A DNA stretch of 36,013 nt from a virus. Positions within the stretch are counted from its first letter, which is position 1. Every line of letters begins with the position of its first letter. This document shows positions 4,779-35,958 of the stretch, in pieces. The notes beneath the pieces are model-generated. The model was not told the DNA's origin. It made no database searches and was given only the letters and a program-made list of their open reading frames with translations. The DNA is taken from UHGV virus genome UHGV-0124616. One strand, 5' to 3'. The position numbers and the translations under genes were made by a program.

Positions 4779-5267
4779 ATGGCAGCACCAAAGGGCAACC
4801 GATTTTGGGAGGCCCGCAGTAGTCATGGGCGAAATCCTAAATTCGAATCGCCTGAGGCGCTGTGGGCTGCTTGTTGTGAATACTTCGAGTGGGCTGATGA
4901 TAACCCGTTATGGGAGGGTAAGGTATTTTCATATCAGGGAGAAATAATTAAGGCTAATGTCCCTAAGATGCGAGCCATGACTATTTCAGGATTGTGTACC
5001 TTCCTTGATATCACCAGGCAAACATGGGGAACCTTCCGGTCAATGGAAGGTTTTTCTGACGTCACATCACGAGCGGAAGACATCATCTACGACCAGAAAT
5101 TCTCTGGCGCAGCCGCTGACCTTCTCAACGCTAACATCATCGCCCGTGATTTGGGCCTCAAAGAGCAGTCGCAAGTTGAAGACGTGACACCTGATAAGGG
5201 AGATCGCGATAAGCGACGCTCTCGTATCAAGGAGCTATTCAACCGTGGAACTGGACGCGATTCTTGA
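4779..5267 (+). CDS. Terminase small subunit (P22 gp3-like)
   Basis: 162 aa, same length as P22 gp3. Lies immediately upstream of and overlapping the large terminase. Confidence 0.85.
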
Positions 5268-6744
5268 TAACCTGAGCGACGAAGAGCAAATCGAATTGCT
5301 CGAGCTACTCGAAGAAGAAGAAAACTACCGGAACACACACCTGCTATATGAATTTACGCCATACAGCAAACAGCGTGAGTTCATCGACGCCGGGCATGAC
5401 TATCCAGAGCGATGTTTTATGGCTGGTAACCAGCTTGGTAAGTCATTTACTGGTGCTGCTGAAGTCGCGTTTCACCTTACCGGGCGTTATCCGGGCACAA
5501 AAGGCTATCCTGCTGATGGTAAATATGGCGGTGAGTGGAAAGGTAAGCGTTTCTATGAGCCTGTTGTCTTCTGGATTGGCGGCGAGACAAACGAGACTGT
5601 AACCAAAACGACTCAACGCATCCTGTGCGGTCGTATCGAAGAGAATGATGAACCTGGCTACGGTTCCATACCGAAAGAAGACATCATTAGCTGGAAGAAG
5701 TCTCCTTTCTTTCCGAACCTTGTTGATCATCTTCTGGTTAAGCATCACACGGCTGATGGCGTTGAAGATGGCATTTCAATCTGCTACTTCAAGCCATACT
5801 CGCAAGGCCGTGCTCGCTGGCAGGGTGACACAATCCACGGCGTGTGGTTTGACGAAGAGCCACCATACAGCATTTATGGTGAAGGTCTTACACGTACCAA
5901 CAAATACGGGCAATTCTCAATTCTGACGTTTACCCCGCTGATGGGGATGTCTGACGTTGTTACCAAGTTCCTGAAGAATCCCAGCAAGTCGCAGAAAGTG
6001 GTCAACATGACCATCTATGACGCTGAGCACTACACCGACGAGCAGAAAGAGCAAATCATCGCATCCTATCCTGAGCATGAGAGAGAGGCGCGTGCTCGCG
6101 GTATTCCTACGATGGGTAGCGGGAGAATCTTCCAGATACCGGAAGAGACGATTAAGTGTCAGCCGTTCGAGTGCCCTGATCACTTCTACGTAATTGGCGG
6201 GATGGATTTCGGATGGGATCACCCACAGGCGCAGGTTCAGCTTTGGTGGGATAAGGACGCAGACACAATCTACGTTTCACGCGTGTGGAAGGCGAAAGAA
6301 AAAACAGCCGTTCAGGCATGGGGAGCCGTTAAATCATGGGCGCATAAAGTGCCAACCGCATGGCCTCATGACGGAAACCAGCATGAGAAGGGCGGCGGTG
6401 AGCAGCTCAAAGGGCAGTATGCCGACGCTGGTTTTATGATGTTGCAGGAGCATGCGACATGGCCTGATGGCGGTAACGCTGTTGAGCCTGGCATCACTGA
6501 ATTGCGAGACATGATGCTCGACGGTCGCTTCAAAGTATTCAACACCTGTGAGCCATTCTTTGAGGAGTTCCGCCTCTATCACCGTGATGAAAACGGGAAA
6601 ATCGTCAAGCTTAACGACGACGTGCTATCCGCCGTTCGCTATGCATACATGATGCGCCGCTTCGCAAAAATGATGCGCGACATCAAAAAGCCAAAAGAGA
6701 AAAAGATACCAGCCCCAATCAGGCCCATCGCACGGAGAACTTAA
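5245..6744 (+). CDS. Terminase large subunit (P22 gp2-like)
   Basis: 499 aa, same length as P22 gp2, with acidic N-terminus [26 protein letters not shown]. Synteny TerS-TerL-portal. Confidence 0.95.
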
Positions 6745-16629: not shown

Positions 16630-18626
16630 TGGCTAAAGCATGGAAAGATGTTATCGCCTCTCCACAGTATCAGGCGTTAGCACCAGAACAAAAAGCGCAA
16701 GCTCAGGAGCAATACTTCAATGAAGTCGTGGCCCCGCAAGCCGGAGAAAATGCAGAGCAGGCTAAGCAAGCTTTCTATGCTGCCTATCCATTGCCATCTG
16801 TACAGCCAGTGGAGACACAGCAACCAGTAGCACAGCAACAACCACAGCAAAGTGGATTTATGTCTGATCTTGGCGAAGCAGTAAAAGAGACTGGTCGCGG
16901 ACTGGTGCAGGCTGGCGTGAACGTGGCAAATATACCTGCATCAGTTGCCGATGCTGTAACAAGCGCGGCGGCTTGGGCTGGCGGTAAACTCGGCATTGGC
17001 GATGGTACATATCAACCAGCGCCACGAGTAACAACGCAGGGATTAGAGCAGGACTTTGGCCTTCAGCAAGGCGCGCTGACTCCACAAACGACAGAGGGAA
17101 GGGTATTTGCTGAAGCATTGCCTTACCTCACTCCTGCTGGCGTTGAGAGAGCGGCGGTACAGGCACCAACACTTGCTGGTCGAATTGCTCAGGGGGCAAC
17201 TCGCCTTCTAGCAGAAAACGCAGTTGGATCACTTGCTGCAAATAGTGCGAAAGATGATGCGGAAGCACTCGCCACCGATTTAGGCGTTGGTGTACTTGCT
17301 GGCGGTGCTATTAACGCTGCTGGACGTGGATTAGGTGCTGCTTATCGTGGCGTTCGTGGTGCTATCGCGCCAGAAGCGCAGCAGGCTATCAGATTTGCAG
17401 AGCGTGAAGGAGTTCCTCTGCACACCACAGACCTGTTACAACCGACTTCCCGCATCGGTAAAATGGCGCAAACGACAGCAGAAAATATCCCCCTGGCTGG
17501 CACAAGCGGAATGAGAGCAACGCAACAGGAAGCGAGAAGCCAGTTGGTTCAGAGATTTGCTGATAAATTCGGTGAGTATGATCCAGCGGTTGTTATTGAC
17601 AGCCTTAAAGCGAAAACATCAGGAATTCGTCGCGCTGCAGGAAATCGACTGGAGCAGGTTCAGAATGCTATGGCGGGAATAAACATTCAGCCTGCAAGAG
17701 CAATTCAGCAGATTGATACAGAAATATCTAACCTGCAGAAGCTTGGTAAGGTTGCTGATAACGAGACTATTTCAAAACTTCAGTCCTATCGTGATGAGCT
17801 TGTTCGCAATGCTGGTCCTGATGGTCCGGTAAATCTGGATTTGAAGCAATTAAGCGATCTGCGCAGCCAGTTCAGAATGGACGTAAAGGGTGAGCGACCA
17901 GTGTTACCAAACCGTTCCGATGCTGCCATTCAGCGCGTTTACAAGGCAATGACCGACGATATCAATGGTGCCATTGGTCAGAATCTTGGCAACGATACTC
18001 TACGTAAATATCAGCAGGCCAATGCCGTCTACGCTGACGAAGCAGCGAAATTAAAGAATACAAGGCTGAAGAATGTTCTCATGAAAGGCGACCTGACGCC
18101 GGAAGTTGTCAACAACATGCTATTCAGCAAGAACAAATCGGAAATTAAGACGCTGTATAACTCAGTTGGTCGTGTTGGTAGGGCGCAAATGCGCAATGGC
18201 ATCATTGGGAAGGCGATGGAGAAATCAGGTGGATCCCCTGACCAGTTCCTTCAACAGCTTAACATCCTGCAAAACCAGACTGGCATCACATTTAAGGGGC
18301 AGGACGCTGCTTATCTGAAAGGATTAAAAAACTATCTGCAATCCACGCAGCAGGCTGCAAAAGCGGCAGTAACAACACCAACAGGGCAGCAAACCATCCC
18401 GTTCATTATCGGGTATGGTACGGCAATGAACCCGGCGACAACTGGAGCAGCAGTAAGCTACGGACTTCTTGCTCGCGCCTATGAGAGCGAGCCATTCAGA
18501 AATGCAATGCTCCGAATGGCAAACACATCACGCGGATCAACAGCGTTTGAGAAAGCCATGCAGCAGGCGCAAAAGGCCATTAACGCCCTGACTCAGGGTG
18601 CCAAGTCTGATGCGTTGTCAGAATAG
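16629..18626 (+). CDS. Ejection protein, P22 gp16-like
   Basis: 665 aa. Last gene of the ejection-protein trio, by synteny. Confidence 0.8.
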   Translation: MAKAWKDVIASPQYQALAPEQKAQAQEQYFNEVVAPQAGENAEQAKQAFYAAYPLPSVQPVETQQPVAQQQPQQSGFMSDLGEAVKETGRGLVQAGVNVANIPASVADAVTSAAAWAGGKLGIGDGTYQPAPRVTTQGLEQDFGLQQGALTPQTTEGRVFAEALPYLTPAGVERAAVQAPTLAGRIAQGATRLLAENAVGSLAANSAKDDAEALATDLGVGVLAGGAINAAGRGLGAAYRGVRGAIAPEAQQAIRFAEREGVPLHTTDLLQPTSRIGKMAQTTAENIPLAGTSGMRATQQEARSQLVQRFADKFGEYDPAVVIDSLKAKTSGIRRAAGNRLEQVQNAMAGINIQPARAIQQIDTEISNLQKLGKVADNETISKLQSYRDELVRNAGPDGPVNLDLKQLSDLRSQFRMDVKGERPVLPNRSDAAIQRVYKAMTDDINGAIGQNLGNDTLRKYQQANAVYADEAAKLKNTRLKNVLMKGDLTPEVVNNMLFSKNKSEIKTLYNSVGRVGRAQMRNGIIGKAMEKSGGSPDQFLQQLNILQNQTGITFKGQDAAYLKGLKNYLQSTQQAAKAAVTTPTGQQTIPFIIGYGTAMNPATTGAAVSYGLLARAYESEPFRNAMLRMANTSRGSTAFEKAMQQAQKAINALTQGAKSDALSE

Positions 18627-28889: not shown

Positions 28890-29138
28890 CTACTCTATTT
28901 CTTCTTCGAATGATTTTATTAGTCGGTCAATAACATCATCCGTTTCAATATCATTTCCGTCTGATTGCTTTAATACATCTATTGATTCTGCAGCGGTAAA
29001 TTCCATCGCTGTGAGAAACTCGACAATTGCACACTCAACGACATATCGTTCTTCATCTGTACGACATGAGATAAAAGAGCATTTAATTGCTGTTATTACT
29101 TTTTGTTTAAGCTCTGCAGGGTAATCAGTTTTTATCAT
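28890..29138 (-). CDS. Hypothetical acidic protein (82 aa)
   Basis: RBS GGAG 5 nt upstream. Sits directly downstream of the tL1-like terminator. Confidence 0.45.
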   Translation of the reverse strand: MIKTDYPAELKQKVITAIKCSFISCRTDEERYVVECAIVEFLTAMEFTAAESIDVLKQSDGNDIETDDVIDRLIKSFEEEIE

Positions 29139-29857: not shown

Positions 29858-30166
29858 TTACCTCGCTGTCAGTTGTTTTGATTTCCGGTAGCCTGCCGCG
29901 TAAATGGCTACGTTTGGCAGGCAAATACTTCCACTGCATTCATCTGCCTTCTTGCAGCGAATGCTTCCGAGTGATATTGCTTTTTCAGAAAGGCTTAAAC
30001 GCTTTCTTGGGGCTTCCTGAACAGGTTCCTCACTGTCTGTGCCGAAGATCGAATCGATGATGTTGCAGATGGAATCACGCTCGATAGCCAGCTTTCTGCG
30101 CCGCTCATGACGGCGAGTTTTGGCATTTCCTGCAAATGTTGATTTTCCGTACACGATTACCGTCAT
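29858..30166 (-). CDS. N: Antitermination protein N, P22 gene 24 type
   Basis: 102 aa from an internal ATG with RBS GAGGA. N-terminal arginine-rich motif GNAKTRRHERRRKLAIERD; sequence resembles P22 gp24 as recalled. First gene downstream of pL/nutL. Confidence 0.85.
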   Translation of the reverse strand: MTVIVYGKSTFAGNAKTRRHERRRKLAIERDSICNIIDSIFGTDSEEPVQEAPRKRLSLSEKAISLGSIRCKKADECSGSICLPNVAIYAAGYRKSKQLTAR

Positions 30167-30285
30167 GATGTTTTCCTCATGTGAAATGGCTTTGGTGGTG
30201 ATGCGCCAGATGCTGATCTTCTGGTTGCTGTCGTTGCAGCTGCAATTCACATCACCGCCAAACCCATCTCGTTTGGTATCTGTTT

Positions 30286-30320
30286 GCGCTTTGTCAGCGC
30301 CCCATCGAAGTTAAAGAGCA
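30286..30320 (-). promoter_or_regulatory. nutL site (boxA TGCTCTTTAA, boxB GCGCTGACAAAGCGC) on the leftward transcript
   Basis: Reverse complement of 30311-30320 is the boxA-like TGCTCTTTAA. Reverse complement of 30286-30300 is the boxB hairpin GCGC-TGACAAA-GCGC (P22-type GACAA loop). Confidence 0.8.
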
Positions 30321-30365
30321 TGCCAATCTGTTCCGTTTGGCTTCCAGCTTCCTGCTGATGTGTTT

Positions 30366-30428
30366 AGTATCACCGCTAGTGGTATGTGTGTCAACACCGC
30401 CAGAGATAATTTATCACCGCAGATGGTT
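30366..30428 (-). promoter_or_regulatory. Lambda-type left operator oL1-oL2-oL3 with pL
   Basis: Three 17-bp lambda operators: TATCACCGCTAGTGGTA (30368-30384), CAACACCGCCAGAGATA (30392-30408), TATCACCGCAGATGGTT (30412-30428). On the minus strand -35 TTGACA and -10 GATACT with 17-nt spacer. Confidence 0.9.
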
Positions 30429-30583
30429 ATATGTATGTTTTTTATATAGATTTATTTTTTGCCGGGGTGTGTTGCTGTGGTGGTGTGATCGAGAGATCAG
30501 AATTGCGATGTTTAGTGAGTTGTATCTATTTATTTTTCAATAAATACAATTGATTATGTTTTTTATGTGGACGATCGTGAGGC

Positions 30584-30610
30584 AAAGAAAACCCGGCGCT
30601 GAAGCCGGGT
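30584..30610 (-). terminator. Terminator ending the cI operon (tIMM-like)
   Basis: On the minus strand, hairpin CCCGGC-TTCAGC-GCCGGG followed by TTTTCTTT, 7 nt after the 290-aa gene stop. Confidence 0.55.
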
Positions 30611-30616
30611 TGTATA

Positions 30617-31489
30617 TTATTTAATTTCTTTTTCCGGTAAATACATTGTCATTTGAACAGGTTTCTTTCCATAGTGTTGAGCTACTCGACTTCTTAGCTC
30701 ATGCATGGTGTCGCATGTTTTTGCGACCCCAATAACCTCCCAGCACCTTGATACAAGCTGCCTTACACCTAGGTTCTCGGTTAACTGTCTATGCCAGTGA
30801 ACTCCTGCCGCAGGCTTGTTTTCTTTAAGATATTTAGCCACATCTTCGTCAAGAGTGTCATAAATTAACTCTATAACTAATTTCCCCCACCATTTGGGCC
30901 TTGATTGCAATGGGGTGCTCCATCCTGTCAATCTACCAAATTCTTCCCATAACTCATCAGGAAATGTTTTTTCCCATGCTCTTAGTTCCTCAGCGATGAA
31001 CGCCCTGAGTTTTACTTGGAGAGCATCCTCTGCGCGCTCATACTGATACCCAGTAGCCTCATCAATTAGAGCATCTAACCCAGTCCTAGTTAAACCCGCT
31101 GTTAATACAGCGCATTTAATTGCTATTTCTCGCTGTCTATCTGTCAATGGCGCGCCTTTGTATAGCGCCTGTACATAGCCGCGACAAATCAATTCAAATT
31201 GCTCAGTCTTAAGTCCTTGGCTCTTAAATTGGGTTCCTGGTATGGAAAACTCTATGAGTTCGGCCAGGACTAAGTCTTTGTCTATAAAGCCATTAAGTGA
31301 GCTAACGCCAATAAATTTAGCCAGGTCTCCTGACTCCGCATTGGCAATTGCTTTTACAGTTGCTCGCAAAGCTATAACACGATGTCCAGTGTCAAGCACA
31401 TAGCAATCAATACTTTCACCACCTAAGTCGATCTTCCCCTTCCATTTTGCGAATGGGGATGGTAATTGCTGTAAATCATCATGTTCCAT
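30617..31489 (-). CDS. Uncharacterized 290-aa protein in the rexAB slot; candidate lysogen-expressed exclusion/defence gene
   Basis: Same strand as cI, starting 32 nt after the cI stop (internal ATG at 31489) and ending 7 nt before the terminator. No Walker, HExxH or other motif I can recognize. Confidence 0.6.
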   Translation of the reverse strand: MEHDDLQQLPSPFAKWKGKIDLGGESIDCYVLDTGHRVIALRATVKAIANAESGDLAKFIGVSSLNGFIDKDLVLAELIEFSIPGTQFKSQGLKTEQFELICRGYVQALYKGAPLTDRQREIAIKCAVLTAGLTRTGLDALIDEATGYQYERAEDALQVKLRAFIAEELRAWEKTFPDELWEEFGRLTGWSTPLQSRPKWWGKLVIELIYDTLDEDVAKYLKENKPAAGVHWHRQLTENLGVRQLVSRCWEVIGVAKTCDTMHELRSRVAQHYGKKPVQMTMYLPEKEIK

Positions 31490-31520
31490 TAATTGAATTA
31501 CCCTTTTTCGCTGCGTTGAA

Positions 31521-32237
<717 letters not shown>

Positions 32238-32240
32238 TTA

Positions 32241-32309
32241 AATCTATCACCGCAAGGGATAAATATCTAACACCGTGCGTGTTGACTATTTTACCTCTAG
32301 CGGTGATAA
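32241..32309. promoter_or_regulatory. Lambda-type right operator oR3-oR2-oR1 with divergent pRM and pR
   Basis: TATCACCGCAAGGGATA (32245-32261), TAACACCGTGCGTGTTG (32268-32284), TACCTCTAGCGGTGATA (32292-32308). pR -35 TTGACT and -10 GATAAT on +; pRM -35 TAGATA and -10 TAGATT on -. Confidence 0.92.
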
Positions 32310-32334
32310 TGATTGCATGTACTAAGGAGGTTGT

Positions 32335-32535
32335 ATGGAACAACGCATAACCCTGAAAGATTATGCAATGCGCTTTGGTCAAACCAAGACGGCTAAAGAT
32401 CTCGGCGTATATCAAAGCGCGATCAACAAGGCCATTCATGCAGGCCGAAATATTTTTTTAACTATAAACGCTGATGGAAGCGTTTATGCGGAAGAAATAA
32501 AGCCCTTCCCAAGCAACAAAAAAACAACTGCATAA
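32335..32535 (+). CDS. cro: Lambda-type Cro repressor
   Basis: 66 aa, [38 protein letters not shown]..., matching lambda Cro as recalled. RBS AAGGAGG. Confidence 0.97.
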
Positions 32536-32542
32536 GTAACAC

Positions 32543-32577
32543 CGCTCTTTATCAATCTGCACCGCCGACAACGCGGT
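32543..32577 (+). promoter_or_regulatory. nutR site (boxA CGCTCTTTA, boxB ACCGC-CGACAAC-GCGGT)
   Basis: boxA at 32543-32551 and boxB hairpin at 32561-32577, immediately downstream of cro. The boxB loop carries the GACAA core also seen in nutL. Confidence 0.7.
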
Positions 32578-34077: not shown

Positions 34078-35958
34078 ATGACACCAAGTGAACTTAGCGA
34101 CCTGCTTTGGGCGCAGGTTGACAGGGTGGCTCCGCACCTGTTGCCAAACGGCAAGAAAGAGGGGCATGAGTGGGTTGCCGGTAACGTCAACGGTGACAAG
34201 GGAAACAGCCTTAAGGTCAACCTTAGCGGCAAGAAAAAATGGGCTGATTTCGCTGAGGGAGACGGCGGTGACATGCTTGATTTGTGGATGGCATGTCGTG
34301 GAATTAACCTGCATCAGGCTATGCAGGAAGCGAAAGCCTTTCTCGGAATCAAGGATGACGATCACCATTTCGATGCCAAACGTGAGAAGAAATTCTCCAG
34401 ACCTGACCGCAAGAAAATCGCCCGCTACGTTACCAGAACAGAATCCCATCTTGAGTACCTGCAATCGCGTGGCATATCGCCAGAAGTCGTAAAGCGCTAC
34501 GAGGTTGTCAGCGGCAAGGTGTGGAATGGAGAACGAGAACTTGATGCACTGGTGCTTCCGTACAAACGCGATGGTGAGTTGTTGCAGGTCAAGCGAATCA
34601 GCACTGAGCGCCCGGACGGGAAGAAAGTCATTATGGCAGAAGGTGATTGCGAACCTTGTCTGTTCGGATGGCAGGCTCTGGACGCTGGCGTGAGGGCGGT
34701 TGTGCTTTGCGAAGGCGAAATTGATTGTATGAGCTATGCGCAATACGGCATCTCGGCGTTATCCGTGCCGTTTGGTGGCGGGAAAGGCGCTAAGCAACAG
34801 TGGATTGAGTTTGAGTATCACAACCTCGACAGGTTTGAGGAAATATTCATCTCGATGGACGTTGATGATGTTGGTCGTGAAGCCGCAAGGGAAATCGCAA
34901 GCCGACTCGGTGAACATCGTTGCCGTCTTGTTACTCTGCCGTACAAAGACATCAACGAATGCCTGATGAACGGTGTTACCGAGGATGAAATCTGGCAGTA
35001 CATCGGCACGGCATCCTACTTCGATCCTGAAGAACTCTACAGTGCGCGAGAGTTTTACCAGGACACTATCAACGCTTTCTACGGCAAGCAGCAGTATCTG
35101 TTTAATCCACCGTGGGAATCTCTGGCAGATAAATTCCAGTTCCGTGAGGCAGAGTTGACGCTGGTCAATGGTGTGAACGGTCACGGAAAAACGGAGGTTG
35201 TCGGGCATATGGCACTTGAGGCAATGCGTCAGGGTGTGAAGACGTGCATCGCGTCACTTGAGCTGAAGCCTGGTATTCTCCTTAAGCGCCTTACCCGTCA
35301 GGCGACGTGCTGCAAGATGCCGCCAGTGCTGGAAATTGACTCTGCATTTAAATTTTATGACGAAAGACTTTGGGTGTTTGGCCTGACCGGAACGGCGAAA
35401 GCCGACAGGCTGATCGAAATATTCGACTACGCTCGCCGCCGATACGGCATCCAGTTATTCATCATCGACAGCCTGATGAAATGCGGCATAGGTGACGATG
35501 ACTATAACGGGCAGAAAGCATTTGTTGACTCGATTTGTGACTTCAAAAACAAAACAAACTCCCACGTCATTCTCGTTACTCACTCCAGAAAAGGAGATAG
35601 CGAAGAAAAACCAACCGGGAAAATGGACGTAAAAGGCTCTGGAGCGATAACAGACCTGACAGACAACCTTTTCATCATCTGGCGTAACAAGGCTCGCGAG
35701 AGAGCGTTACAGAGAGTTCAGAGTGGTGAAAAGATGTCAGAGAAGGACGAACAGCTACTGGCATCTCCGGCATCTGTTTTGATGCTTGAAAAGCAACGTA
35801 ACGGCGAAGGTTGGGAAGGTGGTGTCCCGTTGTTCCTTGACGAGCAATCGCACCAGTTCCTGCAACTTGAATCAGGATCGCCTTATAGCTACATCGCCAA
35901 TATGCCGAAATCGGAATATGACGAGGCGTGGCGACAGGAAAACGTGACGGAGTATTAA
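34078..35958 (+). CDS. Bifunctional DNA primase/helicase (Toprim primase domain plus DnaB-like SF4 helicase)
   Basis: 626 aa. Toprim-like acidic motif VVLCEGEIDCMSYAQYG, then Walker A LVNGVNGHGKT and Walker B-like LFIIDSL. Follows the O-like initiator. Confidence 0.85.
   Translation: MTPSELSDLLWAQVDRVAPHLLPNGKKEGHEWVAGNVNGDKGNSLKVNLSGKKKWADFAEGDGGDMLDLWMACRGINLHQAMQEAKAFLGIKDDDHHFDAKREKKFSRPDRKKIARYVTRTESHLEYLQSRGISPEVVKRYEVVSGKVWNGERELDALVLPYKRDGELLQVKRISTERPDGKKVIMAEGDCEPCLFGWQALDAGVRAVVLCEGEIDCMSYAQYGISALSVPFGGGKGAKQQWIEFEYHNLDRFEEIFISMDVDDVGREAAREIASRLGEHRCRLVTLPYKDINECLMNGVTEDEIWQYIGTASYFDPEELYSAREFYQDTINAFYGKQQYLFNPPWESLADKFQFREAELTLVNGVNGHGKTEVVGHMALEAMRQGVKTCIASLELKPGILLKRLTRQATCCKMPPVLEIDSAFKFYDERLWVFGLTGTAKADRLIEIFDYARRRYGIQLFIIDSLMKCGIGDDDYNGQKAFVDSICDFKNKTNSHVILVTHSRKGDSEEKPTGKMDVKGSGAITDLTDNLFIIWRNKARERALQRVQSGEKMSEKDEQLLASPASVLMLEKQRNGEGWEGGVPLFLDEQSHQFLQLESGSPYSYIANMPKSEYDEAWRQENVTEY

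Follow-up and report, generated by a model that had tools for sequence, protein, structure and literature searches.

We analyzed the virus genome UHGV-0124616, a stretch of 36,013 nucleotides (the window, read on one strand, 5' to 3'), in which a single gene for a 290-residue protein of the P63C family occupies the slot that holds rexA-rexB in phage lambda. Two conclusions are well supported: that this single-gene cassette took the place of rexA-rexB, with cI on one side and the terminator upstream of oL on the other, and that its carrier is a P22-like coliphage or prophage with lambda-type immunity. Going by the position of the gene and the predicted fold of its product, we tentatively favor the view that it encodes a lysogen-expressed, cytoplasmic, DNA-binding cargo protein, which may act against competing mobile DNA in an exclusion or abortive-infection manner.

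The cargo gene lies on the minus strand (30617..31489), with an ATG at 31489 and a TAA stop ending at 30617, so the open reading frame (ORF) proposed in an earlier, sequence-only reading of this DNA is confirmed by the ORF list and the sequence. Upstream on the same strand, the lambda-type cI repressor gene (31521..32234; identified by its ORF, blastn against lambda, and the lambda annotation) ends with a stop codon at 31523-31521, and the spacer to the cargo gene is therefore 31 nt (31490..31520, minus strand). The spacer exposes an AAGGG Shine-Dalgarno-like sequence at 31505-31501, and a terminator scan of it revealed no terminator-like site between cI and the cargo gene. Only 5 nt past the cargo-gene stop, an intrinsic-terminator-like element (30580..30611, minus strand; terminator scan) begins with a hairpin at 30611-30590, whose 8-bp stem contains 6 G-C pairs and is followed by TTTCTTT. 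The hairpin is homologous to the lambda sequence directly downstream of rexB. Since operator oL3 is read at 30412-30428, it lies ~160 bp past the hairpin. The layout described by the sequence-only reading, with the gene on the cI strand and ending at a terminator, is thus correct; its coordinates hold to within 1-2 nt, and its distances shift slightly, as it had put the spacer at 32 nt, the gap to the hairpin at 7 nt, and oL3 at about 150 bp. A longer, 322-residue ORF starting at 31585 was rejected: its start falls inside cI in another frame, and the Salmonella SI8 homologue is annotated with the same start as the 290-residue protein. Genes in related loci were called with a longest-ORF script, which produced the same over-extension in loci L101 and L116, where cI was dropped.

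The borders of the replacement are exact. By blastn, window positions 31520-32549 align with lambda 37226-38255 in a 1030-bp block at 97.3% identity that covers cI, oR, and cro, and positions 30347-30611 align with lambda 35570-35826 at 88.7% identity, covering oL/pL and the terminator after rexB, with lambda homology resuming at 30611 (lambda 35826). The 908 bp between the two blocks stand in for lambda 35827-37225, which comprises rexB, rexA, and the cI-rexA spacer, and blastn of 30612-31519 against lambda found no rex similarity. The gene is indeed in the rexAB slot of a lambda-type immunity region, as had been proposed. The cI-N interval is a known mosaic hotspot, with rexAB in lambda and bstA in BTP1 (PMC8585504), and other phages with lambda immunity carry unrelated genes there, namely an NYN-domain gene in ev099 and other hypothetical genes in HK542, HK544, mEp332, and CL707; the slot was rightly called a hotspot. 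The slot is hypervariable: among 5426 complete E. coli genomes, 1363 have its flanks, and only 10 of these contain this cassette (at least 80% of the query). The RefSeq annotation of these 10 genomes gives the same arrangement, a "P63C domain-containing protein" beside a "LexA family protein" (cI). At the DNA level, no phage record in the phage collection has this cassette in this slot.

The protein had been described as unrecognized and without a motif, which sequence searches overturn. The match to Pfam PF10546 (P63C) has an E value of 2.3e-22 and a score of 79.8 bits, for a cut-off of 26.1; it pairs residues 161-245 with profile positions 2-93 of 93, and PHROG 2384 spans residues 6-287 of the 290 (E 1.3e-86). 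P63C is also matched by all 54 aligned relatives. A 90%-clustered database contains 2702 homologous proteins, and 1987 clusters match at the 50% identity level, most of them over residues ~12-285; the window protein shares this two-domain core with the wider PF10546 family, which is named after p63 of Myxococcus phage Mx8 and includes L0095 of 933W (NP_049495). The number of homologues, together with the strong purifying selection described below, indicates that the 290-residue ORF is not a chance reading frame. Iyer, Koonin and Aravind (2002) reportedly described the Bro-N and KilA-N modules and defined P63C together. An NCBIfam search of the 290-residue protein gave noise only, and sequence searches of the PDB with the single protein and with the 54-sequence profile returned nothing significant.

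Genomic contexts of P63C relatives

The position downstream of a repressor recurs across temperate phages. In Salmonella SI8 (90% identity to the window protein) and in Klebsiella prophages, the P63C gene immediately follows the repressor and shares its strand; it is also downstream of the repressor and on its strand in Erwinia Midgardsormr38 (61% identity) and Salmonella SPN9CC (27% identity). In Pseudomonas chlororaphis and Delftia, the gene again follows the repressor in the same orientation, with two small ORFs in between. In Streptococcus pyogenes Javan515 (31% identity), the order is repressor, P63C gene, integrase, and in Gordonia phage Petra the gene falls within the integrase/repressor block. 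Each locus scan kept the best 80 of at least ~600 matches. Of the IMG/VR loci, 30 show at least 55% identity, and 19 of them have a co-oriented repressor-like ORF at most 1.5 kb upstream; among the 45 loci below 40% identity, 5 do. Repressors were called here with a home-made hidden Markov model that is probably insensitive to distant repressors. Pfam assigned 14 Peptidase_S24 and 12 HTH_3 proteins among 119 upstream ORFs of the IMG/VR loci.

Other sites are also used. Shiga toxin (Stx) phages of the 933W type encode a 349-residue homologue with 28% identity, located beside roi in the nin region instead of the immunity operon. In phage 933W itself (Stx2), the gene occupies L001 3833-4882 (record 17532-18581), between a DNA methyltransferase gene and roi. 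Additional relatives are found at prophage edges or within a type IV secretion system (T4SS) element. Plasmids were rejected as the main habitat of the family, with a homologue in 20 of 72,556 plasmid records.

A second recurrent context, which was unexpected, is the insertion sequence (IS). Across all 157 loci, 26 are adjacent to IS1595-type and 21 to IS1-like transposases, 24 are adjacent to a repressor, and 86 have other neighbors. Many P63C copies in the species-genome sample abut a DDE transposase. At 19 loci of this sample, the transposase is of the IS1595 family (DDE_Tnp_IS1595 and Zn_ribbon_IS1595, E down to 1e-45) and usually sits immediately upstream. IS1595-type units of transposase and P63C gene measure ~2.0 kb. 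Both genes are enclosed by inverted repeats in Acidomonas methanolica (L017 2897-2920 / 4887-4910), and a homologous inverted-repeat pair is present in a Rhodobacteraceae genome (L023 2839-2878 / 4881-4920). Members of IS1595 can carry passenger genes, as reportedly described by Siguier et al. (2009); the literature searched did not confirm P63C as a listed IS1595 passenger.

In 21 further loci, the neighbor is a ~290-residue transposase with IS1-type DDE matches in Pfam. These IS1-like units measure ~2.4 kb and are edged by inverted repeats of the type GGTGGTGTCTCAGTTTGAA, for example at L028 2786-2804 / 5175-5193 (100% complementary) and L044 3408-3428 / 5845-5865. A conserved ORF of ~80 residues accompanies the IS1-like transposase in 11 sampled loci (L025 4835-5086, L044 3468-3707, and nine more). 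It has no Pfam match and shares the orientation of the transposase, not that of the P63C gene, and could represent an InsA-like protein that works with the transposase. Flanked by this small ORF and the transposase ORF, the P63C gene can point either way.

Passengers of the IS units are 31-75% identical to the window protein. The range is 46-75% for the four units named by locus above for their inverted repeats (L017, L023, L028, and L044), with the Acidomonas passenger at 75%. IS-borne and repressor-adjacent proteins reach 83% identity to each other (e.g., L027 and L120), so the two contexts do not represent separate lineages. In contrast to these ~2.0-2.4 kb units with inverted repeats and a DDE transposase, the window copy is accompanied by neither a transposase nor an IS end in the ORF list or the lambda blastn, because its borders are lambda sequence.

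Predicted structure and conservation of the P63C protein

We generated an AlphaFold2 model of the window protein from the alignment of 54 sequences (28-89% identity). The model is confident, with a mean predicted local distance difference test (pLDDT) score of 89, and reveals two domains. The N-terminal domain (residues ~12-110) consists of three strands, helices, two further strands, and a long helix. A Foldseek search of predicted viral structures (BFVD) with this domain retrieved mainly Bro-N / BRO proteins (E 1e-3 to 0.1), including entries named 'Repressor domain protein' and 'Ant-like antirepressor', and a search of the PDB retrieved only the SKI Dachshund-homology domain (E 0.02). Matches to the KilA-type class were weak, with E values of 0.15 for one 'KilA protein' and 3 for an APSES protein. 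We read the domain as a Bro-N / Ski-Dachshund-like α/β fold of DNA-binding type, given modest scores, and the modeled domain most likely binds DNA. By sequence, the 290-residue protein has no Bro-N (PF02498), ANT, or KilA-N match in Pfam (E ≤ 1 for Bro-N), and none of the 54 relatives matches Bro-N at E ≤ 0.01. The KilA-N-like N-terminal domain that the sequence-only reading had suggested looking for gives no Pfam match, and the fold searches point to a related fold, with a resemblance to Bro-N and Ski-Dachshund. The combination of an N-terminal DNA-binding module with a variable C-terminal module recalls the baculovirus BRO proteins and the phage Bro-N + ANT antirepressors, a likeness that is structural only.

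The C-terminal domain (residues ~111-275) is all-helical in the model and contains the P63C match. Family conservation is concentrated here. The strongest motif, A-L-x-D143-E144-A-T-G-Y-Q-x-x-R152, is near-invariant, and further conserved positions include W172, F176-P177, R186-L187, R197-P198, Y210, and H233-Q. Two readings of the motif were rejected. A Walker B or DEAD-type function of D-E-A-T-G is at odds with a segment that is helical in the model and a protein that lacks a Walker A motif, and a tyrosine-recombinase-like T-G-x-R box has a different spacing, with no recombinase among the significant fold matches. The maximal hydropathy over 19 residues is 1.13, which excludes a transmembrane segment. 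The lack of a hydrophobic stretch points to a soluble cytoplasmic protein and led us to reject a membrane-acting superinfection-exclusion factor.

Many relatives carry a variable N-terminal extension before the conserved core, and the window protein has neither of the two types. One is a Cro/YdaS/HTH_3 DNA-binding domain, a Cro/YdaS-type helix-turn-helix (HTH) in relatives P0101, P0103, P0108, and P0110; the other is a basic segment, 'KGGxARAxxL..ExR..AAxARW', present in P0054, P0078, and P0102. Models of PADLOC matched few of the 54 relatives, and these matches were to HTH-type regulators only (mad1, HTH, RmrA, and HTH_VI), presumably through the extra N-terminal HTH extensions.

The coding sequence was compared between the window gene (30617-31489) and loci L004, L005, L007, L013, and L002 from alpha-, beta-, and gammaproteobacteria. 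Homologues from Pseudomonas, Delftia, Aureimonas, Klebsiella, and Salmonella share 77-90% protein identity, and 51-61% of the codons for identical residues differ. High protein identity with differing codons places synonymous sites near saturation and indicates strong purifying selection, which argues for a real function. The G+C content of the gene stays at 43-52% in all hosts compared. The genomes of several of these host genera exceed 60% G+C, a difference that would agree with horizontal mobility. Together, the conserved protein and the steady G+C content point to strong purifying selection on a horizontally mobile gene.

The family is taxonomically broad. A scan of one genome per species found a relative in at least 597 species. 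Among the matches listed, best-segment identity to the window protein was 69% in Acidobacteriota, 61-64% in Bacillota, 58% in Saccharopolyspora, 55% in Nostoc, 49% in Planctomycetes, and 36-41% in Saccharibacteria. In a published protein-sharing network, a P63C protein links a Paracoccus phage to gammaproteobacterial phages.

Possible function and alternative explanations

The shared strand, the lack of an intervening terminator, and the end of the gene at a lambda-type terminator make co-transcription with cI from pRM a sound expectation, and by analogy with lambda this would take place in the lysogen. The cargo gene would then be the distal gene of a cI transcript that starts at pRM, would be transcribed from pRE during establishment, and transcription would end at the hairpin. 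In the mechanism we propose, the N-terminal Bro-N / Ski-Dachshund-like domain would bind DNA, and the helical P63C domain with its D-E-A-T-G-Y-Q..R motif would serve as an effector or partner-binding module. The protein could act on incoming or replicating foreign DNA, blocking replication or transcription of a competitor and shielding the lysogen and its prophage, much as BstA, encoded at the corresponding site of phage BTP1, does; being self-contained, the module might equally benefit the insertion sequences that carry it. The strongest argument for a role against mobile DNA is the synteny with repressors, which persists at identities as low as 27-31% and in phages of both Gram-negative and Gram-positive bacteria. 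In addition, simple insertion sequences carry the gene as their only passenger, whichever way it points, which indicates a protein that is self-sufficient and useful in very different hosts. The exact replacement of rexAB, in a slot with proven abortive-infection genes (lambda rexAB and BTP1 bstA), also counts in favor of this role.

Two known occupants of the slot provide the closest comparisons. Like bstA of BTP1, the window gene is a single gene for a protein of ~300 residues, directly downstream of the repressor of a P22-like phage, with its own intrinsic terminator and presumably a shared repressor promoter. BstA also has two domains, the N-terminal one of the KilA-N / Bro-N class, to which the modeled N-terminal domain of the window protein may be related, and homologues in alpha-, beta-, and gammaproteobacterial prophages. 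Its architecture has been called "strikingly conserved", and it aborts infection at phage replication sites (PMC8585504). Unlike BstA, the window protein ends in a distinct P63C domain and belongs to a family that is far more conserved and also rides insertion sequences. With RexA-RexB, the cassette shares the slot, its flanks (the cI stop and the terminator before oL), and, by inference, transcription in the lysogen. The window has one gene instead of two, no sequence similarity is seen, and RexB is a reported ion channel (PMC8585504), whereas the window protein lacks a hydrophobic segment.

Several observations weigh against a defensive function. PADLOC-DB v2.0.0 contains no family that matches the 290-residue protein at E ≤ 1 and none that matches the P63C core of the 54 relatives, and only a few of 126 immediate neighbor ORFs gave defense-model matches in PADLOC. 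There is no detectable sequence relation to BstA, and hhalign of the 54-sequence profile against BstA of BTP1 gave a probability of 2.3%. Fold and PDB searches identified no convincing structural or sequence relative of known function for the C-terminal domain. The proposed DNA binding derives from a fold resemblance with weak scores, and the protein is acidic (isoelectric point 5.9). The nin-region location of the 933W gene places it on the rightward lytic transcript, not in a repressor operon. Very strong conservation is also unusual for sensors engaged in an arms race. The literature searched (P63C, PF10546, IS1595 subgroups, and wild phages with lambda immunity) contained no functional study and no experimental datum on any member of the P63C family; no established non-defense role for the family was found.

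A different explanation, which we regard as possible and somewhat doubtful, is that P63C proteins serve the element that carries them, be it a prophage, an insertion sequence, or a conjugative element, as a DNA-binding regulator or modulator of transcription, an antirepressor-like factor, or a helper or regulator of recombination or transposition, and so promote the maintenance, spread, or control of that element. N-terminal domains of the Bro-N type, as matched in BFVD, are typical of phage regulators and antirepressors, and some relatives have the extra Cro/YdaS/HTH_3 domain. The 47 of 157 loci that abut an IS1595 or IS1-type DDE transposase inside inverted repeats, together with homologues beside roi in the Stx-phage nin region and in the T4SS element, fit such a service, as does the very high conservation, which would be expected from contact with a universal substrate or host machine. 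However, the gene flips its orientation in the IS1-like units, which looks like the behavior of cargo and not of an integrated component of transposition, and in prophages the gene is not accompanied by a transposase, so that the protein does not depend on one. For an antirepressor, constitutive co-transcription with the repressor of its own phage would make little sense unless it is aimed at other elements, and the Pfam searches described above gave no Bro-N, ANT, or KilA-N match. If the protein instead neutralized a host defense or DNA-targeting function, allowing its carrier to survive in new hosts, its presence in several classes of mobile elements across many phyla and at the early-lytic nin site of Stx phages would follow. 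High conservation would then reflect a conserved host target, and the anti-restriction gene of the window (28890-29138) suggests that this phage invests in such functions. We consider this counter-defense or establishment role unlikely: the main prophage site is the lysogenic repressor operon, an unusual place for entry-phase counter-defense genes, the family is rare on plasmids, and Pfam, PHROG, and fold searches revealed no similarity to known anti-defense proteins.

The precise single-gene cassette with clean borders, its occurrence in either orientation inside IS units, and the near-invariant D143-E144 motif might also be those of a selfish gene resembling a homing endonuclease, in which a DNA-binding N-terminal domain would be joined to a new catalytic C-terminal domain that uses the D-E pair and would bring the carrier no benefit. 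Fusions of Bro-N and KilA-N domains to nuclease-like modules in other virus proteins are said to have been noted by Iyer et al. (2002). This explanation is highly improbable. The insertion contexts are alike in function, after a repressor, not in sequence, and the upstream repressors are different genes. Fold searches detected no nuclease fold. Homing genes tend to decay once fixed, and strong, long-term purifying selection over the whole protein would be unexpected for one.

The anti-mobile-DNA role that we favor for the window protein could also be extended to the family as a whole. P63C might then be an unrecognized pan-bacterial, single-protein immunity factor against phages or other mobile elements, acting on foreign DNA, built around a new effector fold and spread both by temperate phages, under the repressor promoter, and by insertion sequences of the IS1595 and IS1 types, as their only passenger. 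We regard this as possible and somewhat doubtful; it would explain identities of 55-80% between proteins of E. coli prophages and those of Acidobacteriota, Bacillota, Actinomycetes, and Cyanobacteria.

Cassettes of the cI-N hotspot were already known, and P63C was a catalogued domain family annotated in RefSeq. What is new is the repressor-linked synteny in phages of several phyla, the recurrent capture by IS1595/IS1-type elements, the unusual conservation, and a C-terminal fold without known relatives. Two abortive-infection systems, RexAB and BstA, are already known from the cI-N interval, and the P63C cassette is a third, unrelated occupant. It is a good target for study, as temperate phages of Gram-negative and Gram-positive bacteria retain the gene downstream of the repressor even at 27-31% identity, purifying selection on the protein is unusually strong across phyla, and its recurrence as the sole passenger of IS1595/IS1-type elements implies that the protein works alone in almost any bacterium. 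If P63C is a defense gene, it represents a compact one-gene system with a new fold, and immunity genes can then travel on simple insertion sequences; otherwise, it still serves a widespread and unexplained function of mobile elements.

The immunity region and its carrier

The leftward operator-promoter region of the window (30366..30428, minus strand; assigned from the sequence, a promoter scan, the lambda operator annotation, and the 88.7% block) contains, in addition to oL3, operators oL2 at 30392-30408 and oL1 at 30368-30384, as read from the sequence. The promoter scan placed the pL hexamers TTGACA-17-GATACT at 30394-30366. On the other side of the repressor gene, a lambda-type oR / pRM / pR region lies between cI and cro (32235..32334), inside the 97.3% block, with a pR-like TTGACT-17-GATAAT at 32282-32310 in the promoter scan. 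The far edge of the variable slot is formed by an N-like antiterminator gene of P22 type (29858..30175, minus strand), which matches PHROG 271 (anti-termination protein N-like, E 1.4e-43) and whose translation contains the GNAKTRRHERRRKLAIERD motif. The immunity region (29858-32549) is thereby mosaic: cI, cro, and oR are lambda-type at 97% identity and oL at 89%, the arginine-rich motif of N is of P22 type, and the virion genes resemble those of P22.

The half of the window that carries the virion genes is ~96% identical to IME10 and APC_JM3.2, and the early region matches Sf101, mEp043, and vB_EcoP-720R6. The window codes for an integrase, Erf, an anti-restriction protein, N, lambda-type cro and cII, an O-like initiator, and a primase/helicase. 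Two E. coli records of ~165 kb that are classed as plasmids encode a protein 100% identical to the cargo protein (CP099047.1 127301-128170 and CP098966.1 127014-127883), which may reflect a prophage inside a plasmid, a phage-plasmid, or a problem of assembly assignment. The anti-restriction gene is an 82-residue ORF of the early-left operon (28890-29138, minus strand) that matches PHROG 14587, 'anti-restriction protein', with an E value of 2e-48.

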